64,000 nucleotides of DNA from Candidatus Moranbacteria bacterium GW2011_GWC2_40_12 (lineage in GTDB: Bacteria > Patescibacteriota > Minisyncoccia > Moranbacterales > UBA11712). The notes under the pieces were generated by a model that did not search any database, was not told the DNA's origin, and was given only the letters and a program-made list of their open reading frames with translations. Below, piece after piece: positions 7,784-24,369 of this stretch (its first letter is position 1; the number at the start of each line of letters is the position of its first letter). A program made the position numbers and the translations under genes. The DNA is taken from NCBI GenBank assembly GCA_000995965.1, contig LBYD01000002.1, positions 270,563-334,562 on the forward strand, given 5' to 3'.

Positions 7784-7822
7784 CCCGGAAAAATGCCTCA
7801 TTTCGAGGTGTTTTTTTGTTTG
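7784..7822 (+). repeat. Repeated terminator-like motif copy B (cccggaaaaatgcctcatttcgaggtgtttttttgtt)
   Basis: Shares ggaaaaatgcct...ttTgagg..gttttttgtt with 6594-6629; hairpin cctc/gagg + T-run. Confidence 0.6.
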
Positions 7823-7892
7823 ACTTCCTTATTCGTCCCACCTAATATTTAATTATATGGTAAAATTAAAGAACATAGATAAATGAATCCAT

Positions 7893-7948
7893 CCCAACAT
7901 TGAATGTTGGGGTGAAATGCTTGACAGAGGCCAAGATAGTGATATAGT
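7893..7948 (+). promoter_or_regulatory. Perfect palindrome cccaacattgaatgttggg followed by sigma70-like promoter TTGACA-16-TATAGT
   Basis: Inverted repeat 7893-7912; TTGACA 7921-7926, TATAGT 7943-7948; upstream of BRO-N gene at 8002. Confidence 0.45.
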
Positions 7949-8001
7949 GATAGTGTGTTATCCGGGCAGGCTATCTTTATTATTAGAAACAGAAATAAAC
8001 G

Positions 8002-8841
8002 ATGAAAAAAGAAGAGAGAATTGCCATTTTTGAAGGCAAAAAAATCCGCCGGCAGTGGGATGAAAAAGAAGAAAAATGGTATTTTTCGGTTGTTGATATT
8101 GTCCAATTGTTAATTCAGCAAGACAACTATCAAGTTGCCAGAAAATACTGGAATAAGCTCAAAGAAAGGCTTAATAAAGAGGGAAATGAGTCGGTGACAA
8201 ATTGTCACCAACTGAAATTTATGGCTAATGACGGCAAATATTACGCAACTGATGCAGCCGATACAGAGACTCTATTACGTCTTGTTCAATCGGTGCCTAG
8301 CCCCAAGGCCGAACCGATTAAGTTGTGGCTGGCGCGAGTGGGATATGAAAGGATAGAGGAAATAAACGACCCGGAAAAAGCCCTCAATCGTAGTCGCGCT
8401 TATTGGCAAAGAATGGGCCGGAGCCAGAAATGGATCCAGCAAAGAATGATGGGGCAGGGAATCAGGAACAAGCTGACGGATTATTGGAAAAATAATGAAG
8501 TCAAAGAGCGGGACGAATACGCTATTCTCACAAACATAATCCACGAGGAGTGGAGCGATTTATCAGTAAAGGAGCATAAAAATTTGAAAAAACTGGAAAG
8601 AGAAAATCTGCGCGACCATATGACAGACGCGGAATTGGTTTTTACAGCTCTTGCTGAACTCTCCACTCGCCAGATCGCCGAAACTATGGAAACCAAGGGC
8701 TTGGAAGAAAACAAAATCCCGGCCAAACGTGGCGGACAGGTTGCGAAAAACGCCAGACTTGAACTGGAACAAAAAACCGGAAAAAGAGTTGTGACAGATG
8801 AAAATTTGAAGTTACATTATATAAAAAAGATAAAATCTTGA
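8002..8841 (+). CDS. BRO-N domain protein (DinD / prophage antirepressor-like)
   Basis: 'IRRQWDEKEEKWYFSVVDIVQLL' matches Bro-N (KilA-N-like) domain; length ~279 aa as in DinD-like proteins. Confidence 0.6.
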   Translation: MKKEERIAIFEGKKIRRQWDEKEEKWYFSVVDIVQLLIQQDNYQVARKYWNKLKERLNKEGNESVTNCHQLKFMANDGKYYATDAADTETLLRLVQSVPSPKAEPIKLWLARVGYERIEEINDPEKALNRSRAYWQRMGRSQKWIQQRMMGQGIRNKLTDYWKNNEVKERDEYAILTNIIHEEWSDLSVKEHKNLKKLERENLRDHMTDAELVFTALAELSTRQIAETMETKGLEENKIPAKRGGQVAKNARLELEQKTGKRVVTDENLKLHYIKKIKS

Positions 8842-8845
8842 AAAA

Positions 8846-9118
8846 ATGAAAATAGTTTTGAAGATAGATGATAACAATGTCGTCAGAATTTTTCTCTTTA
8901 AAGGGAAAAAAGAGAAAGAAAGCCTTGAGTGGAAAGAAGAAAACTCTCTTTCGCGGTTTTTGCTTGCCAATTTGGACAAACTTTTGCGCAAAAACGGCGC
9001 GGGCCTTGACAAAATTTCTGAATATAAGATAATAAGTGATGTGCCGGAGAATTGGACGAGTGCGAGGATTGCGAAGGTCACATTTGAAAGCCTCGAGATA
9101 GCGACCCTTGCCAAATAA
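8846..9118 (+). CDS. Hypothetical small protein (90 aa)
   Basis: ORF immediately after BRO-N gene; no motif. Confidence 0.3.
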   Translation: MKIVLKIDDNNVVRIFLFKGKKEKESLEWKEENSLSRFLLANLDKLLRKNGAGLDKISEYKIISDVPENWTSARIAKVTFESLEIATLAK

Positions 9119-9256: not shown

Positions 9257-12200
9257 TTGGAGAGTGGCGTGTCTTTTATGTCTTTGGGGCAAAAAACTCT
9301 CGGGGTGAAAGAGTCTTTCAGCCCACAATCCTCTCTGCGCAAGAGGAAATTTTTCAGACGGCTTCCGATGGTTTCTCTTCCCAACTTAATTGAGGGGCAA
9401 GTGGCTTCTTATGAATGGTTCATGAGAGAAGGCCTGAGGGAACTGCTTGACGAAGTGAATCCAATCAACGATTTCACGGGGAAGGATCTGGAGCTTTCTT
9501 TCGGAGAATATTATTTGGACGAGCCAAAATACGATGAAAAAACCTCGAAAGCGAAAAATATTTCTTTTGAGGCGCCTCTTCGCTCAAAAGTGAAGCTTCT
9601 CAACAAACAGACGGGAGAAGTGAAAGAGCAGGAAGTTTATCTCGGAGATATTCCCATCATGACCGAGCGGGGAACATTCATCATAAATGGCGTGGAACGC
9701 GTCGTTGTCAGCCAGCTTATTCGAAGCCCAGGCGTCTTTTTTACTATGGAATATAATAAAGGGCAGCGACTTTTTGGGGCGAAAATCATTCCTAACCGCG
9801 GAGCCTGGCTTGAAATGGAAACTGATCTTGACGGCGCCATTTGGGTGAAAATTGACCGGAAAAGAAAAATAGCCATCACGGCGCTTCTTCGCGCGTTTGG
9901 TTTTTCCAGCGATGAAAATCTGGTAAAAACCTTTTCAGACGTTGATACCGGAGAGAAAAAATATATTGAAGCTACGATTGATAAGGATACGACCAAAAAT
10001 CAAGGAGAAGGATTTCTAGAAGTTTATCGGCGCATCAGGCCGGGAGATTTAGCGACCCAGGAAAATGCCAAACAGATGATTGAAGCGATGTTTTTCAATT
10101 TTGAACGCTATGATTTCGGGAAAGTCGGGCGCTATCGCTTGAACCAAAGAATGGAAACGAAGTTTCCTGATGATGAAGCGCATCGGATCATGCGTCCGGA
10201 GGATTTGGCTGAAATTGTCAAAGAAATTATCCGTCTCAACAATGATCCAATGGCAAGTCCGGATGATATTGACCATTTAGGAAACCGCCGAGTGCGCTGT
10301 GTTGGAGAGCTGGTGCAGAACAAATTCCGGGCGGGTCTGGCGCGGATGTCTCGAAATATCAAAGACCGGATGAGTACCTGCGACCTTGCGACGGTTGTTC
10401 CGGGGCAGCTAATCAATTCCCGTCCGGTGGCAGCCGCGGTAAAAGAATTTTTCGCCTCCTCCCAACTTTCGCAGTTCATGGACCAGGTGAATCCTCTGGC
10501 GGAGCTTGAACACAAGAGAAGGCTTTCAGCGATGGGGCCGGGAGGACTGACCCGCGAACGGGCCGGCTTCGAAGTCCGCGACGTGCACCAATCACACTAC
10601 GGAAGGATTTGTCCAGTGCAGACTCCGGAAGGCCCAAATATCGGACTCGTGAATCATTTATCCTGCTATGCCCGAATCAACGAATACGGTTTTATCGAAA
10701 CTCCATACCGAAAAGTGACACACAAAAACGGAAAACATTTTGTTACGAAGGACATAGAGTATTTAAACGCTACCGTGGAAGACCGCAAAATCATCGCTCA
10801 CGCAGATACGGAAATCGACGAAGAAGGACGCATTTTGAATGAAATGCTCGAAGCGAGGGTAAAAGGGAAACCCTCGATGATTGAAGTAGGTCAAGTTGAT
10901 TATATTGATGTTTCTGCCAAACAATGCATTTCCGTTTCTACGGCGCTAATTCCTTTTCTAGAACACGATGACGCTCACCGGGCTCTCATGGGCTCGAACA
11001 TGCAGCGCCAAGCCGTTTCTTGTATTGTGCCCCAGGCGCCATTGGTCGGAACGGGGCTCGAAGACAAAGCGGCGGCAGATTCGGGGCAGGTGGTTCTGGC
11101 CCGGACAAACGGCGAAGTTGTCGAGGTTGACGCTGATCATATTACCTTAAAAGAGGAAGGTATTTCGGGAAAGTCAGCCAAAAGAACTTATCACCTTCAA
11201 AGCTTTGAGCGTTCAAACGCTTTCACCTGCATGAACCAGATTCCGCGTGTTGAAGCAGGCGAACAGGTGAAAAAAGGGCAACTTCTTGCGGACGGCGCTT
11301 CAACAGACAGCGGTGAACTGGCGCTGGGTCAGAACATTTTGGTAGCTCTTATGCCTTGGGAAGGCGCCAATTTTGAAGACGCGATTATTATTTCGGAAAG
11401 ACTTCTTCAGGATGACCGCTATACTTCGATTCACATCGAAGATTTCACAGTTGATATTCGCGACACAAAACTGGGGCCGGAAGTGGTGACGCGGGACATC
11501 CCAAATATTGGGGAAGAGCGACTCAAAAATCTTGACGATACGGGAATAATTCACATCGGAGCCGAGGTTTCTTCCGGCGATATCCTAATTGGAAAAATAT
11601 CTCCCAAGGGCGAGGGGGACCTCACTCCCGAAGAAAGATTGCTGAGGGCGATTTTCGGGGAGAAATCAAAAGACGTAAAGGATACCTCCCTTTATCTTCC
11701 TCACGGGGAACACGGAAAAGTGGTGGACATAAAGATTTTCTCGCGGGAACAAGGAGATAAGCTTCCCGCCGGCGTCATTCAGCAGATTCAGGTCAGTGTG
11801 GCCCAGCTTAGAAAAATTTCAGTTGGCGATAAACTGGCCGGCCGGCACGGAAACAAGGGTGTGATTTCTAAAATAGCTCCGGCTGAAGATATGCCCTATC
11901 TTCCCGATGGAACTCCAGTCGACATTATCCTCAATCCTTTGGGCGTGGCATCCCGCATGAACATTGGCCAGATTCTCGAAGCCCATTTAGGCTGGGCGGC
12001 GGATAAGCTTGGATACAAGGTGGCGAGCCCCTCTCTTGCCGGCGTGAGCGAGACTGATATCAAGACCGAACTGCGTGAAGCGGGACTCCCTGAAGATGGA
12101 AAAATCAGATTGATAAACGGAAAAACAGGCGAACACTTCGATGAAAAAACCATGGTTGGCCATATGTATATAATGAAACTCAATCATTTGGTTGAAGATA

Positions 12201-12562
12201 AAATTCATATGCGTTCGATCGGACCTTATTCTCTGATTACCCAGCAGCCGCTTGGCGGAAAAGCCCAATTTGGCGGTCAGCGGTTCGGGGAAATGGAAGT
12301 CTGGGCGCTGGAAGGATATGGCAGCGCCTATACTCTTCAGGAAATGCTGACGATCAAATCAGACGACGTTTTGGGCCGGTCTAAAGCCTATGAGTCAATA
12401 ATCAAAGGAGAAAAAATCAGAAATCCGAATGTGCCGGCTTCTTTCAACGTTCTTGTGAGCGAGCTCAAAGGACTCTGTCTCAATGTGGAACTGGTTGGGG
12501 AAAAGGAAGAGGCAAATAGCGGGAAGCCGGAGGAGAAAAAAGAAAAAGAGAAAGCCGAATAA
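9257..12562 (+). CDS. rpoB: DNA-directed RNA polymerase subunit beta (start may be internal, e.g. 9365 MVSLPNLIEGQ)
   Basis: Full-length RpoB signatures: 'LIEGQVASYEWF', 'GELVQNKFRAGL', 'GRHGNKGV', 'ITQQPLGGKAQFGGQRFGEMEVWALE'. Confidence 0.97.
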   Translation: MESGVSFMSLGQKTLGVKESFSPQSSLRKRKFFRRLPMVSLPNLIEGQVASYEWFMREGLRELLDEVNPINDFTGKDLELSFGEYYLDEPKYDEKTSKAKNISFEAPLRSKVKLLNKQTGEVKEQEVYLGDIPIMTERGTFIINGVERVVVSQLIRSPGVFFTMEYNKGQRLFGAKIIPNRGAWLEMETDLDGAIWVKIDRKRKIAITALLRAFGFSSDENLVKTFSDVDTGEKKYIEATIDKDTTKNQGEGFLEVYRRIRPGDLATQENAKQMIEAMFFNFERYDFGKVGRYRLNQRMETKFPDDEAHRIMRPEDLAEIVKEIIRLNNDPMASPDDIDHLGNRRVRCVGELVQNKFRAGLARMSRNIKDRMSTCDLATVVPGQLINSRPVAAAVKEFFASSQLSQFMDQVNPLAELEHKRRLSAMGPGGLTRERAGFEVRDVHQSHYGRICPVQTPEGPNIGLVNHLSCYARINEYGFIETPYRKVTHKNGKHFVTKDIEYLNATVEDRKIIAHADTEIDEEGRILNEMLEARVKGKPSMIEVGQVDYIDVSAKQCISVSTALIPFLEHDDAHRALMGSNMQRQAVSCIVPQAPLVGTGLEDKAAADSGQVVLARTNGEVVEVDADHITLKEEGISGKSAKRTYHLQSFERSNAFTCMNQIPRVEAGEQVKKGQLLADGASTDSGELALGQNILVALMPWEGANFEDAIIISERLLQDDRYTSIHIEDFTVDIRDTKLGPEVVTRDIPNIGEERLKNLDDTGIIHIGAEVSSGDILIGKISPKGEGDLTPEERLLRAIFGEKSKDVKDTSLYLPHGEHGKVVDIKIFSREQGDKLPAGVIQQIQVSVAQLRKISVGDKLAGRHGNKGVISKIAPAEDMPYLPDGTPVDIILNPLGVASRMNIGQILEAHLGWAADKLGYKVASPSLAGVSETDIKTELREAGLPEDGKIRLINGKTGEHFDEKTMVGHMYIMKLNHLVEDKIHMRSIGPYSLITQQPLGGKAQFGGQRFGEMEVWALEGYGSAYTLQEMLTIKSDDVLGRSKAYESIIKGEKIRNPNVPASFNVLVSELKGLCLNVELVGEKEEANSGKPEEKKEKEKAE

Positions 12563-12580: not shown

Positions 12581-15500
12581 ATGAATCAGCCTTCCATTAC
12601 TCGAGTATCCGATTTTGATTCTATCCGCCTGCGCTTGGCCAGTCCCGATAATATATTGAACTGGTCGCACGGCGAGGTAACCAAGCCGGAAACTATAAAT
12701 TATCGCACCCAGCGCTATGAACGCGACGGCCTTTTTTGCGAAAAAATCTTCGGACCGGCCAAAGACTGGGAGTGTTATTGCGGAAAATACAAAAAAATAC
12801 GCTATAAAGGGATTGTTTGTGACAAGTGCGGAGTGGAAGTGACCCGGTCCATTGTTCGCCGAGAGCGCACCGGACATATCAAGCTGGCGGTGCCAGTTTC
12901 GCATATTTGGTTTTTGCGTGGCGTGCCTTCAAAAATCGGGTTGGCGCTTGGCATGACTGCCCAGGACCTTGAAAAAGTTGTCTACTTCGCGAGCTACGTG
13001 GTCATGGAAATTGATGAAGAAGCTCGCAAAGAAACCCTCGCTCGCATTGATTCAGAATACAAAGGCAAACAAAAGAAAATAAAAAGCGAAGCCGAACCGG
13101 GCCAGGAAAAGACAGGCGAACTGAAAAGCGCCTACCAAATCAGCCGCGACGAAATCAAGAATCTGAAGTTGTTCCAAATTCTTTCCGAGGTGGAATATTT
13201 CAATCTCTCCCTGAAATACGGGCATGTTTTCAAAGCTGGAATTGGAGCGGAAGCCATTCGCCGTCTTCTTGAGGAAATTGATCTCGGGAAAGAAATTGAA
13301 AAAATTGAAAAGGCTCTCCAAGACGACAAATCTTCCGACAAAAAAAAGATGCTCAAAAGGCTGAAACTTTTCCAGGGAATGAAACAGTCAGGAATCCGTC
13401 CCGAGTGGATGCTCCCAACGGCTATTCCGGTTATTCCCCCCGATCTTCGTCCGATGGTTCAGCTCGACGGGGGACGCTTTGCCACTTCGGATCTCAATGA
13501 TCTTTATCGTCGCATTATCAATCGCAACAACCGCCTGAAAAAACTCATTGAAATCGGAGCGCCGGAAGTGATTTCCCGCAACGAAAAACGGATGCTTCAA
13601 GAGGCGGTAGACGCTCTCTTCGACAATAGTGCCCGGCGAGGTCAGACTTCAGTTGCGGCCTCCACTGGACAAAGAAGAGCGCTTCGATCTCTTGCGGATA
13701 TGCTCAAAGGAAAGCAAGGTCGGTTTCGGCAAAACCTTTTGGGGAAGCGGGTTGATTATTCCGGTCGCAGTGTTATCGTGGTTGGCCCGCGACTCAAACT
13801 TCACCAGTGCGGTCTTCCCAAGAAAATGGCTCTCGAACTATTCAAACCTTTCATCATCAACAATCTGATTGAAAAAGGATTCGCCCACAACGTCCGGTCG
13901 GCTGGAAAAATGGTTGAATATGAAGCCGAAGAAGCCTACGAAATGCTGGACGACATCATCGAACACCACTACGTCCTCCTTAATCGCGCGCCGACCCTCC
14001 ATCGTTTGAGTATTCAGGCCTTTCAACCTGTGCTGATTGAAGGAAAAGCCATTCAGATCCATCCAATGGTTTGCGCCGCATTCAATGCCGATTTCGACGG
14101 TGATCAAATGGCGGTTCATGTTCCTCTTACGGAAGAGGCCAGGCGGGAAGCAGGAGAAATCATGCTTTCATCCAAAAATCTTCTGAAACCGGCGAGCGGC
14201 GAGCCGATCACGATCCCTTCCCAGGATATGGTGCTTGGCTGTTACTATATGACTCATTTTGTAAAAGGCAGGAAAGGCGAGGGAAAAATATTTTCCGGAA
14301 AAGAGGAAGCTATTCTGGCCTACCACACGGGATATCTGGAGCTTCAGAGTGAAATCGAAGTTGAACTGGACGGCGGGCGAGTGAAAACTTCAGTCGGCCG
14401 GGTTCTTTTCAATGAAATTGTTCCCAAAGAAATCGGTTTTGTCAATCAAGAGCTCGACAAAGGAAAGCTTCGGGAATTGGTTGGGAAATGTCTCGCGGCG
14501 ACATCTTCAGAGGAAACAGCAAAGTTCGTGGATAATCTCAAAAATCTGGCGTTTGGCATCGTTACCCGTTCAGGTCTGAGTTGGGGAATGGACGACCTCT
14601 TGGTTCCAGAAAAGAAAAAAGACATTATCCAGGAAGCCGAGGACCAAGTGGATATTGTCAACAAACAATTTGAAATGGGGCTTCTCACTCACGCGGAACG
14701 GAAAAACCGCATTATCGAAATATGGAATGAAGCCAAAAACAAAATTACTGATGCTGTCCGCGCTTCTCTCGACAGGGAAGGGCCGGTTTATTCGATGGTA
14801 TATTCAAAAGCCCGCGGAACCGAAGCGGTGGTTGTTCAAATGACTGGGATGAAAGGTCTCGTGGCCGGACCTACTGGAGAAACAATCGAGCTTCCTATCC
14901 GGTCTTCTTTCAAGGAAGGTTTCAATGTTTTGGAATATTTCATTGCTACTCACGGCGCGAGAAAAGGTATGGCGGATACGGCTCTTCGAACGGCAACAGC
15001 TGGATATCTGACTCGGCGTCTCGTGGACGTGTCTCAGGATATGGTTGTGCGCGATCCAGATTGCGCCGACGAAGAGGGAGGCTGGATATATCGGGATGAT
15101 TCGGTTGTTGCCGGTGTCAGTTTTTCCTCCCGAATTGCCGGCCGGATTCTTCTTGAAAACGCCGTTGATCCCAAGACAAAAAAAATTATTGCTAAAAAAG
15201 GGGAAATGATCACCAAAGAAGAAGGGGAGGAAATTGAAAAAAAAGGAATTGAAAAAGTGAAAATACGCTCTATCATTACCTGCAAAACGCGCCGGGGAGT
15301 CTGCCAAAAATGCTACGGACTTGACCTTGGAAGAAATGAATTGGTCCAGATCGGCCAGGCGGTTGGGATCGTGGCGGCCCAAGCTATCGGCGAGCCGGGG
15401 ACCCAGCTCACGATGAGAACTTTTCATATCGGAGGAGTGGCCGGGACGGACATCACCCAGGGACTTCCCCGGGTGGATGAAATTTTTGAAGCCCGTCCGC

Positions 15501-16162
15501 CAAAAGGTGAAGCGGCGGTTTCGGAAGTCGACGGAAAAGTGGCTGAAATCACCGAAACGGAAAAAGACAAGATTATCCGCGTGGAAGCGGAAGGGCCGAA
15601 AAAGAAAAAAGACATTCATGAGTATGTCGTTTCGGCTGTGATGAACCTCAATGTTCAAAAAGGAGATCTCGTCACCCGCGGCCAAGTTCTTTCCGAAGGG
15701 CATCTGGATCTCAAAAAGCTTTTCAAGATAAAAGGGCGGGAAGTTGTTCACCGCTATATCACAAAAGAAGTGCAGGAAATTTACAGCGCTCAGGGAGAGG
15801 GCATCAACGACAAGCATATCGAAGTGATCATCCGCCAGATGCTTTCGCGCGTGCGCATTCTCGATCCGGGCGACACCAGTCTTCTTCCAGGCGACACAGT
15901 CGAAGAAGTCCAGCTTCAAGAGGCCAATGAAGCGGCCAAGAAAGCAGGAGGAAATGTGGCCACGGCTGAAAAGCTCCTGCTCGGAATATCGAAAGTCGCC
16001 CTTTCAACAGAAAGTTTCCTTTCGGCGGCGTCCTTCCAGGAAACAGCTAAAGTCCTCATCAACGCGGCCGTCACCGGAAAAGAAGACCGCCTGCGGGGAC
16101 TAAAAGAAAATGTGATTATCGGAAAACTAATCCCGGCCGGAACAGGGTATCGGAAGCAATAA
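12581..16162 (+). CDS. rpoC: DNA-directed RNA polymerase subunit beta'
   Basis: Zn-finger '[23 protein letters not shown]', '[14 protein letters not shown]' catalytic motif, 'RPPKGEAAV' trigger loop region. Confidence 0.97.
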
Positions 16163-16202
16163 TTGGAAAGTATCGAAAAATATTTGGTATTTCGCATAAA
16201 GA

Positions 16203-16226
16203 AAATCCGCCTTGGGCGGATTTTTC
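16203..16226 (+). terminator. Rho-independent terminator after rpoC (aaaatccgccttgggcggattttt)
   Basis: Hairpin ccgcc-ttgg-gcgg + T-run. Confidence 0.7.
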
Positions 16227-16545
16227 TTATGGGGAAAAGATTTAAATTTTAAAACCACAAATGCAATTTATGATTTTGGAAAAGAGGGAGTGAAATATAT
16301 TCTAATAATATAATTCATATCACTTCTCAATTCCTATTCTAACCCTACATTATACGCTTATTTTATGCTTTTGTCAATCTCCCGTGAAACATTTTGAAAT
16401 ACGCTGTGAAACGAAGAATGACGCCTCATATAAAGCATTATTTCGTAAAAAACAACCTTTGCAGGTTATTTTCAAAAAACAAAATACGCCTAAAGATTTG
16501 AATCCAAACTTGAGCTGATTTATTCGCTTTTACTCTCCATAACCT

Positions 16546-16701
16546 TCATCTCCGCGACGCGAGGGCGGCGAGAATGAGCCCGGCTACGTTCACCAGAACC
16601 AGAAGCCCCGCGACCACGAGAGTCGAGACGATGGAGAAGGCGCCATAGAGGCCGTATCTCCCGTGCCGATACTCAGCGGGAGAAATCCAACGCTTTTTCA
16701 T
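16546..16701 (-). CDS. Candidate 51-aa single-TM hydrophobic peptide (MKKRWISPAEYRHGRYGLYGAFSIVSTLVVAGLLVLVNVAGLILAALASRR), locally GC-rich
   Basis: Uninterrupted ATG..TGA ORF below the ORF-track cutoff; strongly hydrophobic C-terminal helix; GC ~60% versus AT-rich surroundings; no obvious SD. Confidence 0.3.
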   Translation of the reverse strand: MKKRWISPAEYRHGRYGLYGAFSIVSTLVVAGLLVLVNVAGLILAALASRR

Positions 16702-16887
16702 AACGATAGCCTAATAATTAGCTATCTTTATTTTTTCCGCCAAATCTGGCGGACAAAACAGCCTATCATGAGGAAAAAAATCTGTCAACAAAAAAATCCC
16801 GAAACAACAAAAAAGGCTTATAAAAAGCCAAATTAATCTATTTCTAAAGTCAAACCCGGAGGGAAAGACTAAATCTACACATATTTC

Positions 16888-16913
16888 AATTGTATCATAA
16901 TAACACGGCCGTC
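16888..16913. repeat. 26-bp direct repeat copy 1 (caattgtatcataataacacggccgtc)
   Basis: Matches 17497-17524 with 2 mismatches; together they bracket the 16928-17485 gene. Confidence 0.6.
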
Positions 16914-16927
16914 TTATTATGATACAA

Positions 16928-17485
16928 CTATCTTCTAAAAAAATGCCTTTTGAGGGCGGGTTCGCTGTCGATGTTTGTCGCGGTGACAACCCTAACATAA
17001 GGCTGGGCCGAATAAAGTGAGACAAGCTCCTGGATGGGCTTTTCAAATGGATGCGGAGAAACAAAAACGCTGTGCTGGAGTTTCAAAAATTTGAGCGTCC
17101 GCAAATGCTCGCGCAGAATATCGCGAAACAGCCGATTTTTCTCCGGAATGTCGAAAAGAACGAGCCGCCATTTTCCATCCCAGCGCTTCGGCCTTTTGAA
17201 ATTTATGGAGCTTCCGATGAGACTCAATATTTTCGCTTCCCGTTTGCCTCTTGTCGTCAGAACCAGTCTGAAAGATCCGTCAGGGAGCCTTTTTTCTTTA
17301 AGGAGTTTTTCATCGGAGAGACGGTGCAAAGAGCGGTTGAAATTCCGTTGGTCAATTTTTCTCCATTCTGACCGCATGAGGCGTAGTGTCCGGTAGTATT
17401 GCCAGGGAGATCGAGAAAAGCCGAGGGCAACACTGCCCATAAGAGCTATGAGTATCTTTTTTTGCACAGGTCCGAATTTATACAT
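16928..17485 (-). CDS. wHTH-like N-terminus fused to Cas2-like domain (PaaX-like architecture); solo, no CRISPR/cas1 nearby
   Basis: 'WRLVLFDIPEKNRLFRDILREHLRTLKFLKLQHSVFVSP...YVRVVTAT' resembles Cas2 core (Y/FDI..D..R.R....L...G.R.Q.SVF.C ... vRvy); N-terminal ~95 aa basic/helical. Confidence 0.5.
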   Translation of the reverse strand: MYKFGPVQKKILIALMGSVALGFSRSPWQYYRTLRLMRSEWRKIDQRNFNRSLHRLSDEKLLKEKRLPDGSFRLVLTTRGKREAKILSLIGSSINFKRPKRWDGKWRLVLFDIPEKNRLFRDILREHLRTLKFLKLQHSVFVSPHPFEKPIQELVSLYSAQPYVRVVTATNIDSEPALKRHFFRR

Positions 17486-17496
17486 GGTCCAATTTC

Positions 17497-17524
17497 CATT
17501 GTATCATAATTATACGGCCGTGGA
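17497..17524. repeat. 26-bp direct repeat copy 2 (ccattgtatcataattatacggccgtgg); contains minus-strand CCGTATAAT -10-like box ~25 nt upstream of ATG 17485
   Basis: See copy 1; a third partial inverted copy AATTATACGGCCGTGG at 61927-61942. Confidence 0.6.
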
Positions 17525-17653
17525 AAGATGATGCGTTGCGGGGTTCTGTAGGGGGAGGATCCTGAATGTGGAGGCTCCTGAAGTTGGACTTTAGGAATGA
17601 TTATCCCGCAGTTTTAAAATCTCTTCAACTGATTGATTATTATTATAACTCAT

Positions 17654-17686
17654 TGAAAAACAAAGACCAGCCCACGGTGGGGCTGG
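17654..17686 (-). terminator. Rho-independent terminator for minus-strand operon (ccagccccaccgtgggctgg + T-run on minus strand)
   Basis: Perfect 8-bp stem hairpin followed by U-run in minus orientation, just 3' of gene ending 17693. Confidence 0.7.
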
Positions 17687-17692
17687 TGTGAG

Positions 17693-18079
17693 TCAGGCCT
17701 TTTTTATTGAGAATATCTCGAGCGTTATGCTCCCGTCAACATGGAAAGTCACTTTTGGCGCAAGTTCAAATTCAATGCTTGTTATGAATTCTTTTGCACT
17801 TTCCCAGGCTTTTTGCAGTCGCCCTCTTTTTTTTGGGTCGAGTTTGAGGTTAAAGAATAGGAAATGACCGTAAAGCTTTGTTTGAACGGGCATTCCATTT
17901 TGATATATTAATACCCCCAGAGTAACCCCTTGTTTTTGCCGAAGTTTTTCAGCAGAAATGGCCATGTCTAGGAAATCTTCCCATGCCTCTGCTTCCAGAT
18001 GCTTTAGCTCCTTTTTACTCAAAACCTCTTTCAGTTCTTTAATTGCCTTATCTGTCGTAAGAAATTGACCCTCGGCCAT
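17693..18079 (-). CDS. Hypothetical soluble protein (128 aa), third gene of XRE/ImmA operon
   Basis: No TM, no known motif; 58-nt gap after ImmA-like gene, same strand. Confidence 0.45.
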   Translation of the reverse strand: MAEGQFLTTDKAIKELKEVLSKKELKHLEAEAWEDFLDMAISAEKLRQKQGVTLGVLIYQNGMPVQTKLYGHFLFFNLKLDPKKRGRLQKAWESAKEFITSIEFELAPKVTFHVDGSITLEIFSIKKA

Positions 18080-18137
18080 GACGAATCCCTCCTTGTTTAG
18101 CTTTTTTTGCTTCCAAAAAGTTAAATCTTAATAATTC

Positions 18138-18659
18138 TCATTCATTGCCTAACTTTAACTCTTTTGCTCTATAATAAATTGCATCACCCGAAACGCCAAA
18201 GAATTTTGCCAACCTTGCCCTCTTCCATATATCTCCATCGGTTATAGAATTCCACTTATCGCGAAACAGTATCTTGGGCATCAAAAAAGCCGCCGCGAAT
18301 CTTTCACAGAATCTTTCTTCGCCCCAGGCAGAATAAATATCCCCAGTTGAGAAACCATACTTTAATCCCGAGTTTCTGATTATATGCGCAATTTCATGAC
18401 ATAAGGTGAATCTTTGCCTATATTCCGGTTCCTTGGAATTTATCCAGATTTGGAAAATATTTCTCGCAGGATCGAAATACTCAAGTCCCGATGGTTTGAA
18501 TTCTTTTGAATCGGTATGAGAAATTTTCACTCTTATTCCAAGATTCTCTTCTGTCCATTTAATCAAGGAAAATTCTGAAGGCATTTCCTCTTTTATGCCG
18601 TCGTAAATCGCTTTGGCAATATCTTCTGCATTTAGATTTATTCCTTCATATGATTTCAT
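18138..18659 (-). CDS. ImmA/IrrE-family metallopeptidase (DUF955/COG2856-like), HEXXH 'HEIAH'
   Basis: 'FTLCHEIAHIIRN' zinc-metallopeptidase motif; overlaps upstream XRE gene by 4 nt (ATGA). Confidence 0.7.
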   Translation of the reverse strand: MKSYEGINLNAEDIAKAIYDGIKEEMPSEFSLIKWTEENLGIRVKISHTDSKEFKPSGLEYFDPARNIFQIWINSKEPEYRQRFTLCHEIAHIIRNSGLKYGFSTGDIYSAWGEERFCERFAAAFLMPKILFRDKWNSITDGDIWKRARLAKFFGVSGDAIYYRAKELKLGNE

Positions 18660-18985
18660 ACTCGCTTTCCGAAATTATCGATTAAATCTTCAATTAACTT
18701 CACATCAATCTCATTTTTAATTTTGTATTTTTTCCGCAAATACATTCTTAGAGGAGATGGCTCATTCTGCTCAATGACATTAAGATTATCAAGTATCTCT
18801 TTGACTTTAATACCTAATCCTTGAGCAAGTTTTATGATTGAATGCAGGGAAATATTTTTTTTGTCAAAATCTCCTTTCTCAATACGCGAAATGAAGGCCT
18901 TTGATAAGCTTGATCTTTCGGACAGTTCGTCGATCGTAAGAGATTTGTTATCCCTATATTTTTTAACAATATTACTTAGTTGCAT
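18656..18985 (-). CDS. XRE-family helix-turn-helix transcriptional regulator
   Basis: 'KSLTIDELSERSSLSKAFISRIEKGD' canonical Cro/C1 HTH; 109 aa. Confidence 0.75.
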   Translation of the reverse strand: MQLSNIVKKYRDNKSLTIDELSERSSLSKAFISRIEKGDFDKKNISLHSIIKLAQGLGIKVKEILDNLNVIEQNEPSPLRMYLRKKYKIKNEIDVKLIEDLIDNFGKRV

Positions 18986-18997
18986 AGAGTATAATTA

Positions 18998-19025
18998 AGT
19001 TTATCACAGTGAATATTTCTGTCAA
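18998..19025 (-). promoter_or_regulatory. Minus-strand promoter TTGACA-16-TAAACT with embedded palindrome TCACTGTGA (candidate XRE operator)
   Basis: Read on minus strand: TTGACAgaaatattCACTGTGAtaaact...ATG; perfect 9-bp palindrome in spacer. Confidence 0.45.
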
Positions 19026-19281
19026 CTCCCTATAAAAAAATCGCCGGTTCCCTGACGAAAATTATTAGTTATCTACTTTTTATAGCAACATCAGATTATT
19101 AAATTTACCACCGCCTCCGCGATGTGTTCGTTCCAATCGTGACGGCGATTGTCTTTTTGCCAACTTTGGTCAATTTTCTCACTTCTCTTTCTTCTTTTTT
19201 GCTTCTTGCCATTTTTTTTTAATTACTTACCTAGTTACGTAATTATGCAAATATCCTATCTCAAAATCCCACATTTGCCAA

Positions 19282-19320
19282 GAAAAAAACCTTGCCGACT
19301 ACACGCACAAGGTTTTTCTT
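19282..19320. terminator. Bidirectional terminator (aaaaaaaccttgccgactacacgcacaaggtttttctt)
   Basis: Hairpin ccttg...caagg flanked by A-run and T-run. Confidence 0.6.
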
Positions 19321-19339
19321 AATAGAGTAGGCACTGCAC

Positions 19340-19828
19340 TTATCCTCTCCCAATCCCATACTTTGCGATGTTCAAAGCGTGCCATCTCCACGCTTTTCGC
19401 GTAATTTCGTAAGTGTCAGCTGATTGATTTGCGGGACTGCGTTTGCGTCCTTTTTTGCAGATAGGTTTCTCCTCCACAAGCCCCAGGCCTTTCATGACCT
19501 TCAGGTGTGGGATCGTTTCAGCTTTCAGGTGAAGCCTGAACTTTCCTCCCTCGCGGGAAAATCCTTCTTTGTCCGCAAAGACAGCAGCTAGTTTGTTTAG
19601 TATGTCTTCAAGAACATTAATGGGAATGATGTTTTGAGTTTCCCACGCTATTTCATTTGGAATCATATAAGCTTCCTCCGTTTCCCGTAGAATATTTCCA
19701 GCTCGTTTGAGCGGGTAAGGAACATTTTTTCTTGTCCCCATCCTATCCCAAAATGGCTGATTTATCAAGAAACTGGAAAGTTTTGACTGAATATGGTAAA
19801 ATAGGATAGTCTTAATTGCGCAAAACAC
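19340..19828 (-). CDS. Hypothetical protein; likely true start at internal Met (19738, MGTRKN) since 19828 abuts divergent ftsK start
   Basis: ORF with no recognisable motif; divergent to ftsK. Confidence 0.35.
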   Translation of the reverse strand: MFCAIKTILFYHIQSKLSSFLINQPFWDRMGTRKNVPYPLKRAGNILRETEEAYMIPNEIAWETQNIIPINVLEDILNKLAAVFADKEGFSREGGKFRLHLKAETIPHLKVMKGLGLVEEKPICKKGRKRSPANQSADTYEITRKAWRWHALNIAKYGIGRG

Positions 19829-19831
19829 AAA

Positions 19832-22105
19832 ATGGGCAGACGCCGAAAAAAAGATAAAAACGGGGAAGAAAAAACAAACGGGCGGGGGAGGACGCCGAGA
19901 AATAAAGGATTGAGCGGTGACACAAAAAGAAGCATTGTCGCTGTTTTTCTCATTGCCTTGGCCATTCTCTCCATTTTCAGCCTTTTTGGAGGAGCGGGAA
20001 CGTTTGGTGTGTATTTCAACAAAATTTTGTCGCTGGCTTTTGGTATTGGGCGCTTTCTTCTTCCGATCCTGATGATTGCCGTCGGATTCATGTATTTCCG
20101 GCGGGATACCGAGGCTTATTATGTCTTTGTGGCAGCCGGATTCATTTTATTTTTCGCGAGTGTTCTCGGTATCGTCCATATTTTCAATCCACTTTCCGAA
20201 ATGCTAGCCGTCGCGAAAGGCGGTTCGGGCGGCGGATTTTTAGGCGCGGCAACCGCTTATCCGGCTCTCAAATTTTTCGGTTTTTGGGCGGGAGCCATTG
20301 TGCTGCTCTCGGTTGCCCTGGCATCTTTGCTGCTTGCGCTCAATGTTCCATTTCGGGCGCTATTGAAACCAATTGAATGGATGAAAGAAGAGGAAGAGGA
20401 GGCCGAAGATGAGAGAGGGGAGGAAGAGCCAAGAGTTTCTGTTGAAGAAAAAAAGTCTGCAGCGGTGAAAATAAGCGAGATACTAAAAAGAAAGCCGGAA
20501 AGAGCGGCAACAGAGAAAAAAATGCCAATTGTGGAAAGACAAAGCGGTCCAATCGGATGGAAATTTCCCCCGCTTGATCTTCTGGAAAAAACAACTGGCA
20601 AGGCCAAGGCCGGCGATATCGAATCGACCGCAAAAGTAATTCAGGAAACATTCAAGAATTTCGGGATCGAAGTCGAAATCGGCGACATCAGTGTCGGACC
20701 GTCGGTGACACAGTATTGTTTCAAACCAGCAGCCGGAATCAAGCTTTCAAAAATAACGGGACTGAATAATAATCTTTCTCTGGCATTGGCCGCGCATCCA
20801 ATCCGTATTGAAGCGCCTATTCCTGGAAAATCTCTTATCGGAATTGAGGTGCCCAACAAGGTTTCGACAATGGTTCGGCTTCGGAATATCATCGAAAGTT
20901 CTGAGTTCGCGGAAAGGAAAACGAATCTCACTTTGGCGCTTGGGCAGGACGTTGCCGGAAATTATATTCTTGGCGATCTCACGGAAATGCCCCATCTCAT
21001 GATTGCAGGTGCGACCGGGACCGGGAAAAGCGTCTGCATCAACACGCTCATCACGTCACTGCTTTACCAAAATTCGCCTGACGATTTGAAGCTGATTTTG
21101 ATTGACCCGAAACGGGTAGAGCTGACAGCGTTCAACGGCATTCCGCATCTTCTCACCCCGACCGTGGTGGATAACGGAAAAGTTGCCAATTCCCTGAAGT
21201 GGGCGATCGGCGAAATGGAAAGGCGCTACAAGATGCTTCAAGAGGCGAGTTCGAGGGATATTTTTTCTTACAACAGCAAGATAAAAGAAGGGCAAACGAA
21301 AAAAATAGTAGACGAGGAGACAGGTGAGGTCGTTGGCGAGGAAGAAGTGAAAAAACTGCCATATATCGTCATCATCATTGACGAATTGGCTGACATTATG
21401 GCTAGTCATTCCAAGGAAGTGGAAGCGGCCATTGTGCGTTTGGCCCAGATGGCGCGAGCGGTGGGTATCCACCTGGTTGTCTCCACACAAAGACCGTCTG
21501 TTGAGGTTTTGACTGGTCTCATCAAGGCGAACATTACGACGAGAATCGCATTCCAAGTGGCGACGCAAATTGATTCGCGGACCATTCTTGATATGGCCGG
21601 AGCGGACAAACTTCTTGGGAATGGGGATATGCTTTTCCTTTCTGCCCGTTCGCCAAAACCAAAAAGGATTCAAGGAGTTTTTGTTTCCGAATCGGAAGTG
21701 AAACGGGTTGTGAAATCAATCAAATCCCAGCTTAAAGAAGAAGTAGAATACAACGAAGAGATTGTTGCGCCGCAGCGGGTAAGTCTGGAAGGGAAAATGA
21801 CAGGGGCAGGTTCTTTGAGCGGAGACGATGAAGGCGATGAACTCTATGAAGAAGCCAAAGATACTGTTTTGAAATCCGGAAAAGCCTCGGCGTCACTTCT
21901 CCAGCGCCGGCTTCGGGTAGGATACGCCCGGGCGGCAAGACTTTTGGATATTCTGGAGGCCAACGGCATTATTGGGCAGGCGGATGGCTCGAAAGCCAGA
22001 GAAATATTGGTTGATAACGGGAACGGATCGAAGCCGGGACAGGAAGAACCCCAGTATGAGGATGATTTTTCAGACCAAAAAGCGAGAGACCGTTGGCAAA
22101 TGTGA
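19832..22105 (+). CDS. ftsK: DNA translocase FtsK/SpoIIIE
   Basis: N-terminal TM segments, Walker A 'GATGTGKSV', 'IIIDELADIM', 'VSTQRPSVEV', C-terminal gamma domain 'SLLQRRLRVGYARAARLLDILE'. Confidence 0.95.
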   Translation: MGRRRKKDKNGEEKTNGRGRTPRNKGLSGDTKRSIVAVFLIALAILSIFSLFGGAGTFGVYFNKILSLAFGIGRFLLPILMIAVGFMYFRRDTEAYYVFVAAGFILFFASVLGIVHIFNPLSEMLAVAKGGSGGGFLGAATAYPALKFFGFWAGAIVLLSVALASLLLALNVPFRALLKPIEWMKEEEEEAEDERGEEEPRVSVEEKKSAAVKISEILKRKPERAATEKKMPIVERQSGPIGWKFPPLDLLEKTTGKAKAGDIESTAKVIQETFKNFGIEVEIGDISVGPSVTQYCFKPAAGIKLSKITGLNNNLSLALAAHPIRIEAPIPGKSLIGIEVPNKVSTMVRLRNIIESSEFAERKTNLTLALGQDVAGNYILGDLTEMPHLMIAGATGTGKSVCINTLITSLLYQNSPDDLKLILIDPKRVELTAFNGIPHLLTPTVVDNGKVANSLKWAIGEMERRYKMLQEASSRDIFSYNSKIKEGQTKKIVDEETGEVVGEEEVKKLPYIVIIIDELADIMASHSKEVEAAIVRLAQMARAVGIHLVVSTQRPSVEVLTGLIKANITTRIAFQVATQIDSRTILDMAGADKLLGNGDMLFLSARSPKPKRIQGVFVSESEVKRVVKSIKSQLKEEVEYNEEIVAPQRVSLEGKMTGAGSLSGDDEGDELYEEAKDTVLKSGKASASLLQRRLRVGYARAARLLDILEANGIIGQADGSKAREILVDNGNGSKPGQEEPQYEDDFSDQKARDRWQM

Positions 22106-22275: not shown

Positions 22276-23274
22276 TTGCTTCGCAATTTTACTAAGAAAA
22301 AAATAAATTCCTATACCCTCGGTGAACAGCTGAAAAAGATGCGGAGCGACGGCCGGGTGACTCTTCACGAAGTTTCGCGGGAAACAAAGATTCCAGTTAA
22401 ATATTTGGCGATGATCGAAGAAGGAGACTCGGAAAATCTCCCGCCGGATGTATATGTAAAAGGGTTTCTGAAAAGCTACGCTGAATATCTGGGGATTGAC
22501 CATCAAAAGCTTGTTGCTCTTTATCTGCGCGACAAGGATATCAAGAATAATCTTGGAAAGAACGACCGAAAGGAAAAAACGCCCAAGACCTCCCGGTTAC
22601 CGCGTTTTGTGATTACGCCAAAAATGACCACGGCCGCCGTCGCAATCATTATTGCTGCCAGCGGATTTTATTACTTATACAGTGAAATTGGCCGTTTTGC
22701 CGCCCTCCCGAGGCTTGTTGTCACCGATCCGGCAGGGGACACGTCAGTAGAAGGAAATTCTATCACTATTTCCGGTTTCACCGATCAGGACGCGAAACTT
22801 ACTATCAATGAACAGGCCGTGATGGTGAAGGACAACGGTGAATTTCAGGAAAATCTTTTGCTTCAGGAAGGCGTGAATTCAATCAACATATCTTCGATGA
22901 ACAGGTTTGGGAAAACAGCGGTGAAAACATTGAATATAAGCTCAAACTATAAAAAGCCGGAAATTGCCTTTGATGAAAATGGAGGCGGTGAAGGGCAGGT
23001 AAGCGGAGAGCAAGCGAGGAAAGAAGAGGGTGTCGAGATTGCCTTGAGAGTAGACGCCAACCCGACCTGGCTTTCCGTCGAAATTGACGGGAAACTTGTT
23101 TATTCGGGGACAATGCTTCCTGGAGCGACGCAGAGCTTCAAAGGCGAGAAGGAAGTCAGAGTAACCAGCGGAAAAGCGAATCAAACCTTCATCCAGGTGA
23201 ACGGGAAAGATGAAAAAATTTTGGCGGATGATCCGGGAATAGTGAGGGATGTATTGTTTGGTCCAAATGATTAA
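22276..23274 (+). CDS. rodZ: RodZ-like cytoskeleton protein (HTH_XRE + TM + C-terminal domain)
   Basis: 'LGEQLKKMRSDGRVTLHEVSRETKIPVKYLAMIEEGD' HTH, central TM 'AAVAIIIAASGFYYLY', DUF4115-like C-terminus. Confidence 0.65.
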   Translation: MLRNFTKKKINSYTLGEQLKKMRSDGRVTLHEVSRETKIPVKYLAMIEEGDSENLPPDVYVKGFLKSYAEYLGIDHQKLVALYLRDKDIKNNLGKNDRKEKTPKTSRLPRFVITPKMTTAAVAIIIAASGFYYLYSEIGRFAALPRLVVTDPAGDTSVEGNSITISGFTDQDAKLTINEQAVMVKDNGEFQENLLLQEGVNSINISSMNRFGKTAVKTLNISSNYKKPEIAFDENGGGEGQVSGEQARKEEGVEIALRVDANPTWLSVEIDGKLVYSGTMLPGATQSFKGEKEVRVTSGKANQTFIQVNGKDEKILADDPGIVRDVLFGPND

Positions 23275-23376: not shown

Positions 23377-24369
23377 ATGTCAAAAGAATCTCAAAACAAA
23401 GAAACTCTGCTAGAGGATACCGTCAAGGAAATCAAGGACCGCTTTGGAGACGGGTCAATTATGAAACTTGGGGATGTGAAAAGAGTTGATGTGGCGGCTA
23501 TCCCGACTGGTGCGCCATCCCTGGATTTGGCGCTTGGGATTGGCGGAGTTCCGCGAGGGAGAATCATTGAAATATACGGCCCGGAATCATCCGGGAAGAC
23601 GACACTTGCTCTCCATATTGTGGCCAATGCCCAAAAAACGGGCTCGGCTGCCTTCATTGACGCGGAGCACGCCCTTGACCCTTCTTATGCCAAAAAAATC
23701 GGAGTAAATCTCAATGATCTTTTGATATCTCAGCCTGACAATGGGGAACAAGCGCTGGATATCGTGGAGACGCTTGTGAAATCGAACGCCGTGGACGTGA
23801 TCGTTATCGACAGCGTAGCCGCCCTGACTCCGCAAGCGGAGATTGAAGGCGAGATGGGAGATAGCCATATGGGGCGGCAAGCGCGACTCATGTCTCAGGC
23901 CCTTCGCAAACTCACGGCAATCGGTGCGAAAAGTAATGTGACCATAATTTTCATAAATCAGATCCGAATGAAAATCGGAGTTGTTTTTGGCAATCCCGAG
24001 ACAACTACCGGAGGAAACGCCTTGAAATTCTATGCTTCCGTCCGTATTGAAGTTCGGCGCGCGGCCCAAATAAAAATGGGAGATCAAGTGGTTGGAAACC
24101 GGGTAAAAGCAAAAATTGTGAAAAACAAAGTTGCTCCGCCATTTCAAGTCACTGAATTCGACATCATGTATAACGAGGGCATTTCAAAAGAAGGGGATCT
24201 CATCGACACAGGCGTGAAATATGAAATCGTGACTAAAACCGGAAACTCTTTTTCTTTTGGCGAGACAAAAATTGGCGTTGGCCGAGAAAAGGCGAAAACA
24301 TTTCTGCGCGAAAACCCGAAAGTTTACAAAGAAATCGAAAAAGCGCTCAAAGAAAAGGTGAAAGAATAG
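23377..24369 (+). CDS. recA: Recombinase RecA
   Basis: '[20 protein letters not shown]', 'IDAEHALDP', '[10 protein letters not shown]' canonical RecA. Confidence 0.97.

Follow-up and report, generated by a model that had tools for sequence, protein, structure and literature searches.

Hotspots of gene turnover and horizontal gene transfer (HGT), like core defence hotspots, are an established pattern between core genes (Oliveira et al., 2017, PMC5635113; Johnson et al., 2023, PMC10250203). We examined the spacer between the genes rpoC and ftsK in a 64-kb stretch of DNA (the whole of which is hereafter the window) from a groundwater Moranbacteria of the candidate phyla radiation. An earlier reading made from the letters alone (the sequence-only reading) had described this spacer as a non-core island and suggested a hotspot of accessory or defence genes around rpoBC. 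In Patescibacteria, whose streamlined genomes are tiny, it is poorly known where flexible genes are located. As in the described hotspots, the rpoC-ftsK interval is fixed while its content varies between relatives, the relatives' intervals are rich in restriction-modification, toxin-antitoxin and regulator genes, and there are no mobility genes in the interval, which fits turnover by recombination in the flanks. Unlike the described hotspots, the interval belongs to a Patescibacteria genome of ultra-small size and directly adjoins the RNA polymerase operon, and its content in the window consists of regulators and orphans and not of recognisable defence systems. We consider it fairly probable that recombination drives the variation of the spacer, which would be a hotspot lying between two conserved core operons and not a discrete integrative island. 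The locus is a case of ordinary genome plasticity in a new lineage and a new location, and holds no new recognisable system. The interval that follows the RNA polymerase operon appears to be a favoured site of gene turnover in one Moranbacteria clade and is almost empty in most other Patescibacteria examined, and rpoC together with ftsK could be used as an anchor for mining accessory and defence genes from the metagenomic contigs of this group. Two modest leads are an apparently mobile cassette of an XRE-family repressor gene and an ImmA-type peptidase gene (XRE-ImmA), which recurs across Parcubacteria at the rpoC|ftsK-recA junction, and PaaX-like genes with a palindrome on either side.

A variable interval between rpoC and ftsK

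The left conserved flank of the interval is rpoC (12581-16162, + strand), a 1193-amino-acid (aa) open reading frame (ORF) that follows rpoB (9257-12562, +) and whose identical public gene carries the Pfam RNA_pol_Rpb1 domains. The right conserved flank is ftsK (19832-22105, +; Pfam FtsK_4TM/alpha/SpoIIIE/gamma, E down to 8e-62), with a rodZ-like gene (22276-23274) and then recA (23377-24369) on its 3' side. Measured from the rpoC stop codon to the ftsK start, the spacer is 3,669 bp long and carries five or six small genes on the minus strand, in agreement with the ~3.7 kb and the feature positions of the sequence-only reading; from left to right the spacer encodes a membrane peptide (TM51), a PaaX-like regulator, an orphan (hyp128), ImmA, XRE, a truncated AbrB/MazE-type product and a hypothetical protein (hyp133). 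That reading had taken rplKAJL-rpoBC-rpsLG-fusA as the normal surroundings of rpoBC, a baseline that turned out to be inapplicable. We found 80 genome loci with the RpoC C-terminus; in the Firmicutes checked among them, rplL lies upstream of rpoB, and in the Patescibacteria loci rpoC is followed by ftsK, the rodZ-like gene and recA. No homologue of L11, L1, L10 or L7/L12 was detected by tblastn with Firmicutes queries in the window or upstream of rpoB in the Patescibacteria loci, and the canonical rplKAJL-rpoBC context was rejected on this negative result; the conserved order in Patescibacteria is rpoBC-ftsK-rodZ-recA.

More than 20 loci, with RpoC 50-95% identical to that of the window, have the order rpoC...ftsK-rodZ-recA with syntenic flanks, and the ftsK-rodZ-recA part is kept in nearly all relatives with tight junctions. 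Among loci designated here by L numbers, rpoC-ftsK-(rodZ)-recA occurs in L002, L004, L005, L007, L011, L023, L077 and L110-L114. The spacer measures only 13-1019 bp in nine of ten distant relatives with RpoC 50-57% identical (L004, L005, L007, L011, L023, L077, L110, L112/113 and L114) and 541 bp in L002, the closest relative from the genome collection among the matches listed. It measures 1.9-6.1 kb where RpoC is at least 82% identical, a clade comprising L084 and L085 (94-95%), L089, L096, L104, L118 and L124 (82-83%) and the window itself, and 3-5 kb in L125, L126 and L129. Because the spacers are short in distant relatives and long in particular lineages, the comparison indicates that rpoC-ftsK adjacency is ancestral and that the extra DNA is derived.

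The content of the relatives was read from their spacers and from partial regions upstream of ftsK. None of the PaaX-like, hyp128, ImmA, XRE and hyp133 proteins has a counterpart in the spacers of L084, L085, L089, L096 and L104 (tblastn), and the spacers of the eight genomes with RpoC at least 82% identical share almost no genes, the exceptions being TM51 (three genomes) and XRE-ImmA (three). The spacer of L084 encodes a 535-aa TPR membrane protein, that of L085 a TM51 homologue and a 240-aa orphan, that of L089 a TrmB-type regulator and several orphans, and that of L096 a Ham1 nucleoside triphosphatase and orphans; the L104 spacer holds DUF3800, a type I S subunit (HsdS), an N6-methylase/Eco57I-type enzyme and LexA. 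Upstream of ftsK, L092 carries two AAA_14/DUF4143 ATPases and HicAB, and a nucleotidyltransferase/HepT pair (HepT/MNT) occurs in L086 and L118. This synteny comparison, which the sequence-only reading had proposed as a check, shows that the content of the interval varies between species, being different in every relative instead of following the same order in all, and the description of the spacer as non-core holds. The suggested hotspot of accessory or defence genes is borne out by the restriction-modification, toxin-antitoxin and regulator genes of the relatives but not, as far as defence is concerned, by the spacer of the window: no known defence effector was matched there by PADLOC, whose matches were limited to the CapH/CapP pair and a sub-threshold Cas2 (the PaaX-like gene).

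The borders of the variable DNA were drawn with blastn. On the left, homology to L084, L096 and L118 runs through the rpoC terminator and ends at ~16231; on the right, it starts again with L084, L085 and L105 at ~19730-19740, where the hyp133 start codon lies, and 19730-19831 is a conserved region upstream of ftsK that forms the right border of the variable segment. TM51 and its flanks form an internal block (16476-16832) with 80% identity to L085, and the species-specific DNA comes down to ~16833-19729 (2.9 kb). Since the relatives carry other DNA at this position, the change is a replacement and not a simple insertion. The single inserted island of the sequence-only reading gave way to a mosaic, in which the terminator, the 16476-16832 block and the last ~100 bp before ftsK are common to close relatives. 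No integrase, transposase or recombinase domain was found in the spacer (Pfam) and no tRNA within 15 kb, the nearest lying at 793-865 and 36706; a search for att-like repeats at the borders, likewise proposed earlier, gave nothing above chance (at most 16 nt at 81%). An integrative island was rejected in the absence of integrase, tRNA and att repeats.

An assembly or binning artefact, with foreign DNA joined between rpoC and ftsK, could be suspected as the genome is metagenome-assembled and the GC content of the spacer is below that of its flanks. The locus nevertheless recurs with identical proteins and gene order on long contigs (113-157 kb) from JGI, NCBI (GCA_003489455.1) and ENA, and these three independent, protein-identical assemblies therefore show that the spacer is not an assembly artefact. 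An identical FtsK is present in 45 indexed blocks of the collection and has the same neighbouring genes at all 13 places examined, ten of which were grouped as similar, and the homology to relatives runs unbroken from the flanks into the spacer. The artefact is effectively refuted.

In the scenario that we favour, ftsK-rodZ-recA would ancestrally have stood almost directly 3' of rpoC, and the spacer would have expanded in this clade, with its content turning over between species. Because integrase, transposase, tRNA and border repeats are absent, we infer that the content is replaced when DNA that has been taken up recombines homologously in the conserved flanks, and that local deletion and decay add to the turnover. 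The present content could then be seen as a mosaic of independent minus-strand units, namely hyp133, the AbrB/MazE remnant, XRE-ImmA-hyp128, the PaaX-like gene and TM51, of which the third would combine an AT-rich XRE-ImmA cassette, mobile by horizontal transfer, with a co-transcribed orphan. Several points weigh against this scenario. Homologous replacement is deduced from the missing mobility genes, and the composition of the whole segment deviates only mildly (GC 0.40 against 0.442 in the window, the 4th percentile; tetranucleotide distance at the 9th percentile). XRE-ImmA stands in the same gap of five other species, and part of the content could therefore be old and vertically retained. 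Occupation of the recA-efp junction in some relatives bears on how exceptional the rpoC-ftsK hotspot is. The status of hotspot rests on ~15 loci and not on a pan-genome statistic, and among the matches listed in the genome-contig scan the species' own genome is absent, and some close relatives may be missing.

The XRE-ImmA-hyp128 operon and its relatives

Pairs of an XRE-type repressor and an M78 peptidase are known as ImmR/ImmA (integrative and conjugative element (ICE) ICEBs1 of Bacillus, phage phi105), as DdrO/IrrE (Deinococcus) and as CapH/CapP of CBASS (the cyclic oligonucleotide-based anti-phage signalling system). CapP comprises a peptidase, a linker and, at the C-terminus, a GAF domain, a domain also present in IrrE, and CapH/CapP-like pairs regulate many defence operons (10.1101/2022.04.27.489752). 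The window holds a comparable operon, already recognised in the sequence-only reading, that encodes an XRE-family helix-turn-helix (HTH) repressor of 109 aa (18656-18985, -; HTH_3 E 1.2e-10; PADLOC CapH E 4.9e-10) and an ImmA/IrrE-type M78 zinc metallopeptidase of 173 aa with a HEIAH motif (18138-18659, -; Peptidase_M78 E 7e-19; PADLOC CapP E 5.3e-18, model positions 6-153 of 242). The two genes overlap by 4 nt and are translationally coupled, and their products match phage repressor and metalloprotease PHROGs. The operon promoter, placed by consensus scans (TTGACA, 16 nt, TAAACT, with TG; 19025-18998, -), is positioned 6-13 nt before the XRE ATG, and L118 and L119 have kept its sequence upstream of their XRE genes. 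The third gene, the orphan hyp128 (17693-18079, -), is followed by an intrinsic terminator (17687-17666, -) with an 8-bp stem containing 6 GC pairs and then CTTTGTTTTT.

Like ImmR/ImmA and DdrO/IrrE, the window has an XRE-type repressor adjoining, and co-transcribed with, an HExxH M78 peptidase. The ImmA of ICEBs1 is ~170 aa long, and the ImmA of the window is similarly short and peptidase-only. Unlike the ImmR/ImmA modules of ICEs and phages, the pair has no integrase, excisionase or phage genes around it in the spacer (Pfam, PHROG). It matches the CapH and CapP profiles, but its ImmA differs from CapP and IrrE in having no region corresponding to the GAF domain, and the pair differs from CapH/CapP in being co-directional with its neighbours, with no divergent defence operon. 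For these two reasons we file it, by its sequence features, as a probable ImmR/ImmA-type switch and not as CapH/CapP. Unlike in either system, the co-transcribed third gene is an orphan in the window and a different gene at every homologous locus. By analogy with ImmR/ImmA, DdrO/IrrE and CapH/CapP, XRE would most likely act as a repressor at its own promoter region, the ImmA metallopeptidase would cleave XRE once activated by a signal of stress or DNA damage, and cleavage would de-repress the operon together with its variable third gene. A 26-bp palindrome, TAATTACTTACCTAGTTACGTAATTA (19220-19245), accompanies a promoter-like site (19281-19253, -); outside the window its element AATTACGTAACTAGnTAAGTA, like the promoter-like site, is conserved only at the corresponding position upstream of XRE in L119/L120, which makes the palindrome a candidate XRE operator. 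No operator shared between the XRE promoter region and the regions upstream of ftsK, rodZ and recA was found.

Besides the sequence of its own species, hyp128 has three partial matches among 5.8 billion proteins, all of them to its N-terminal ~45 residues. The likeness of residues ~8-45 to part of adenylylsulfate reductase alpha explains the odd NCBI name of the protein; these residues are 47-71% identical to a motif, KELKHLEAEAWEDFLDM, that occurs in adenylylsulfate-reductase-alpha-like fragments and in an unrelated coiled-coil protein. Searches of Pfam, PHROG, PADLOC and a viral-contig scan gave no match or relative for hyp128, and its single-sequence AlphaFold (AF2) model is unusable (predicted local distance difference test (pLDDT) 48.5).

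A further 40 homologues, equal to ImmA in size, occur in Patescibacteria. In six of the 11 distinct contexts examined, the homologue lies in the rpoC-ftsK gap, in both orientations and with a different downstream gene each time. ImmA is followed by hyp128 in the window, by inositol-phosphatase fragments in L118 (ImmA 82%, RpoC 82% identical to those of the window) and by a radical SAM/SPASM gene in L124 (59% and 83%); in L125 (53% and 69%) it stands alone on the rpoC strand with LexA nearby, and the order is XRE-ImmA-NYN-ftsK in L126 (60% and 69%) and XRE-ImmA-DUF3800 in L129 (56% and 56%). Outside the gap, homologues occur in an unrelated context in L119/L120 (79%), beside an Eco47II restriction-modification system in L121/L122 (58%), beside a methylase/helicase pair in L123 (58%), beside BRO-N and an Eco57I-type methylase in L127 (58%) and after nrdDG in L128 (58%). 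The XRE proteins of L118 and L119/L120 are 81% and 76-77% identical to that of the window. The GC content at third codon positions (GC3) is 0.31 for XRE and 0.36 for ImmA, and 0.31-0.39 across XRE, ImmA and hyp128, against ~0.50 for rpoB, rpoC, ftsK and recA; XRE-ImmA is likewise 0.2-0.3 below the core genes in six of seven other hosts checked, with a small or absent deficit in L123. Among the copies resident in the gap, ImmA identity does not track RpoC identity. This mismatch, the varying orientation and the low GC3 are the signature of a horizontally moving cassette, one that would be mobile yet land or persist preferentially in the rpoC-ftsK gap, and such a preference would fit a swap of entire spacers through recombination in the conserved rpoC and ftsK flanks.

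The same distribution bears on a second explanation, in which XRE-ImmA, and perhaps more, belonged to the ancestral gap and was lost in L084, L085, L089, L096 and L104. The presence of XRE-ImmA or ImmA in the gap of L118, L124, L125, L126 and L129 is what this explanation expects, as are the XRE/ImmA identities of 81-82% in L118, equal to those of RpoC (82%) and FtsK (81%), and the occurrence of TM51 in four species. Yet at practically the same RpoC identity (82-83%) ImmA is 82% identical in L118 and 59% in L124, and it stays at 53-60% while RpoC falls from 83% to 56%. The orientation of XRE-ImmA relative to rpoC and ftsK differs between species, and TM51 takes a different place with respect to XRE in L118 than in the window. 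Most hosts checked show a GC3 deficit of 0.2-0.3 against the core genes, neither of the two closest relatives (RpoC 94-95%) has the pair, and a 79%-identical copy sits in the unrelated context of L119. Ancestral content with differential loss is in our view unlikely.

A third explanation holds that the spacer is an active anti-phage locus, a small defence island made of a CapH/CapP-like damage switch and a novel effector, hyp128 (possibly hyp133 or the PaaX-like gene). It draws on the CapH and CapP matches and on the regulation of many defence operons by such pairs, on the restriction-modification, HicAB, HepT/MNT and DUF3800 genes in the gap of relatives, on the restriction-modification genes that adjoin the ImmA homologues of L121, L123 and L127, on the variable gene 3' of ImmA (NYN, DUF3800 and radical SAM among others), and on the match of the BRO-N gene upstream of rpoB to PDC-S13 (see below). 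However, hyp128 and hyp133 match no defence model and hyp128 is essentially without homologues, no known effector domain is present, and the missing GAF-corresponding region and the co-directional arrangement both depart from CapH/CapP. We regard a working defence locus as quite improbable, and a recombination-driven variable interval remains our preferred reading.

The PaaX-like gene, the BRO-N gene and phage-like traits

PaaX is the repressor of the phenylacetate catabolon. The gene at 16928-17485 (-), 185 aa, which the sequence-only reading had called Cas2-like, has Pfam PaaX_M ('PaaX central Cas2-like domain'; E 1.2e-22, 80.2 bits, residues 100-175) as its sole significant Pfam match. It resembles Cas2 in the ferredoxin-like Cas2 fold that the PaaX_M annotation implies and in weak profile matches (PADLOC Cas2 E 6e-4); unlike Cas2, it stays below the cut-off of PF09827 (15.4 bits against 23.8; Pfam E 0.021), is fused to a DNA-binding N-terminal part, and has no CRISPR array in the 64 kb of the window (Tandem Repeats Finder). 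Its immediate neighbours carry no Cas-type Pfam domains, a result obtained with no dedicated cas1 search. With a sub-threshold Cas2 match, a strong PaaX_M match and no array, we rejected a CRISPR Cas2 and regard the gene as a PaaX-type regulator. As with PaaX, the PaaX_M (Cas2-fold) match is strong and the gene is flanked by long palindromes, as expected of a repressor with operators; unlike PaaX, the protein is 185 aa long with only PaaX_M reported (no PaaX_N or PaaX_C), its N-terminus is hydrophobic, no paa genes lie near it, and a 70%-identical copy is found on a phage-like contig. Its GC3 of 0.52 looks native. Between its promoter region and the hyp128 terminator we observed a 16-nt tandem repeat (17546-17588; 2.7 copies, 77% matches) and, beside it, a sub-threshold Rfam CRISPR-DR32 match (17611-17646); as there is no array, both are probably due to chance.

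The stop codon of the PaaX-like gene is abutted by a near-perfect 38-bp palindrome, TTGTATCATAATAACACGG|CCGTCTTATTATGATACAA (16890-16927, within 16883-16928), a putative operator and/or hairpin. A second copy of the repeat (17492-17532), direct and 80% identical over 41 nt, provides a half-site (17498-17521) that is 13 nt upstream of the ATG and overlaps a promoter-like site (17526-17498, -); a pattern search found three half-sites ATTGTATCATAATnAnACGGCCGT in the window against 0 expected. A PaaX-like homologue in L093 (32% identity), located in a different variable gap, between recA and efp, is flanked on both sides by a 36-nt palindrome (7539-7574 and 8242-8277) with related half-sites TCATAnnAAC. 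The 70%-identical copy lies beside a Phage_rep_O gene on the IMG/VR phage contig L130, and no flanking palindromes were detected around it. To our knowledge, a palindrome on both sides of the gene is not a described feature of PaaX. In the simplest reading the bracketed gene probably encodes a repressor with its own operators; the palindromes themselves could serve as operators, form terminator hairpins or mark the ends of a small cassette. A far-reaching possibility, which we put forward as speculation and think improbable, is that XRE-ImmA, instead of being random cargo, resides lineage-wide at the rpoC|ftsK-rodZ-recA junction of Parcubacteria (six of 11 contexts, in hosts with RpoC 56-83% identical) as a LexA-, DdrO/IrrE-like damage switch driving a swappable 'slot' gene (hyp128, NYN, DUF3800, radical SAM and others); the junction would be a regulated cassette-exchange site beside recombination and division genes, and the palindrome-bracketed PaaX-like gene (two variable gaps, a phage contig) would be a second movable regulatory cassette.

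Accessory genes occur on the other side of rpoBC as well, as the sequence-only reading had supposed. L085 has the ortholog of window 5865-6518 (79% aa identity) immediately before that of a conserved 90-aa ORF (orf90; 8846-9118 in the window), after which comes rpoB; window 6519-8845 (+) is therefore a second species-specific insertion, of 2.3 kb, a call that rests on L085 as the single comparator. It contains orf113 and orf91, which have no family matches, and a BRO-N gene (8002-8841, +; Pfam E 2.7e-7). BRO-N does precede rpoB, as stated earlier, with orf90 in between; rplL is no baseline here, as no rplKAJL homologue was detected upstream of rpoB in Patescibacteria loci. BRO-N is a full-length match to the PADLOC profile PDC-S13 (E 5e-118; residues 1-270, model positions 1-267 of 286), itself only a candidate single-gene defence. 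Another BRO-N gene was seen beside the XRE-ImmA pair and methylase of L127.

Taken with the PaaX-like copy of L130 and the PHROG matches of XRE and ImmA, BRO-N (phrog_15286, E 5.7e-91; viral homologues 47-62% identical) raises the question of a degraded prophage or integrative-element remnant, of which XRE/ImmA, the PaaX-like gene and BRO-N would be leftovers beside rpoBC, from one or more phage-like elements; the truncated and orphan genes of the spacer also point to decay. Such a remnant would have to be reconciled with the absence of any integrase, excisionase, structural or replication gene, tRNA or att-like repeat and with a species-specific segment of only 2.9 kb. Moreover, XRE-ImmA occupies the same gap with wholly different neighbours and no phage genes called in the loci looked up, and the best viral relative of ImmA in the viral-contig scan is 30% identical. 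We give a phage remnant a low probability and retain exchange of the interval between conserved operons as the better account.

Other features of the spacer and its relatives

The left part of the spacer begins with a bidirectional intrinsic-terminator hairpin after rpoC, the inverted repeat AAAATCCGCC-ttg-GGCGGATTTT (16190-16236). The AT-rich non-coding stretch of the sequence-only reading is indeed AT-rich (GC ~0.37) and ORF-free, but measures 383 bp (16163-16545) and not ~500 bp. Within its part at 16237-16545 lies a perfect sigma-70 consensus promoter on the minus strand (12 of 12 matches; TTGACA 16377-16372, 17 nt, TATAAT 16354-16349), aimed at the rpoC terminator. The ~157-nt transcript predicted from it (16342-16186, -) folds at -40.9 kcal/mol (z = -5.5), contains a C/U-rich segment resembling an anti-Shine-Dalgarno sequence, and has a sub-threshold csRNA as its only Rfam match (28 bits); no Rfam match at or above the gathering thresholds was obtained in the spacer or in the relatives' spacers. 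The promoter region is 80% identical to L089 6251-6300, which is located upstream of two ORFs, and a small RNA of ~150 nt and an orphaned promoter are therefore both candidates. TM51, the GC-rich small transmembrane-peptide ORF noted earlier, is present at 16546-16701 (-; 51 aa, GC 0.60, GC3 0.71). Its homologues in L085 (77%), L092 (65%) and L118 (74%) always lie in the variable region upstream of ftsK, and TM51 itself, which has no Pfam, PHROG or PADLOC match, belongs to a framework shared and conserved within the clade, outside the species-specific insert.

In the right part, a 35-aa ORF (19105-19212, -; element 19041-19212), with a terminator-like hairpin on its 3' side (19058-19041, -), aligns over 28 aa with the N-terminal half of a 56-aa MazE_antitoxin gene of L123, at 46% identity (pairwise E 4e-7). 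As the ORF corresponds to the N-terminal half of an AbrB/MazE-type gene, it is taken as a truncated gene in decay. The hypothetical gene before ftsK was found as described and corresponds in public gene calls to hyp133 (133 aa; 19340-19741, -; GC3 0.43); a 162-aa version with a GTG start is an over-extension into the conserved DNA upstream of ftsK. Exhaustive HMMER searches of 1.84 billion representatives gave three remote, unannotated homologues (33-39%) that align from residue 26, and the true start may be M26 at 19666. hyp133 has no Pfam, PHROG, PADLOC or PDB match (the PDB profile search gave noise only), no relative in the viral-contig scan and no homology to the 119-aa gene at the same position upstream of XRE in L119, and its AlphaFold model (AF2, single-sequence; pLDDT 50.7) is unusable. 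In a word-based homologue search, hyp128 and hyp133 both came out as near-orphans. A promoter-like motif, TTGATAAA-N11-GGGATAGGAT (19768-19740, -), points into the spacer from the conserved right border; it is aligned in L084 and L085 despite their differing spacer content, and occurs twice upstream of the XRE cassette in L119 (4923-4959 and 5463-5504). A weaker copy was noticed at window 19253-19281.

Three further observations concern the relatives. A block common to the spacers of L089 (8360-8551), L096 (6820-6993) and L099 (28-252), which the ORF finder reads as FSHQRFDSADKMTAVRFSA, has no Rfam family match and could be an undescribed RNA or a small gene. The convergent recA-efp junction spans 67 bp in the window and 1.4-1.7 kb in some relatives (L089 ~14268-15680, L096 ~14530-16217, L093 6793-8348), and may be a second, weaker variable site. 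Genes related to DNA damage recur directly beside ftsK-rodZ-recA in the spacers of relatives, namely LexA in L104 (9144-9788) and a LexA-like Peptidase_S24 in L125 (7762-8421), and an ORF resembling UvrA by eye lies beside ftsK-rodZ-recA in L098 (327-3116); together with the ImmA/IrrE-type pairs, these are hints of a possible damage-response neighbourhood.

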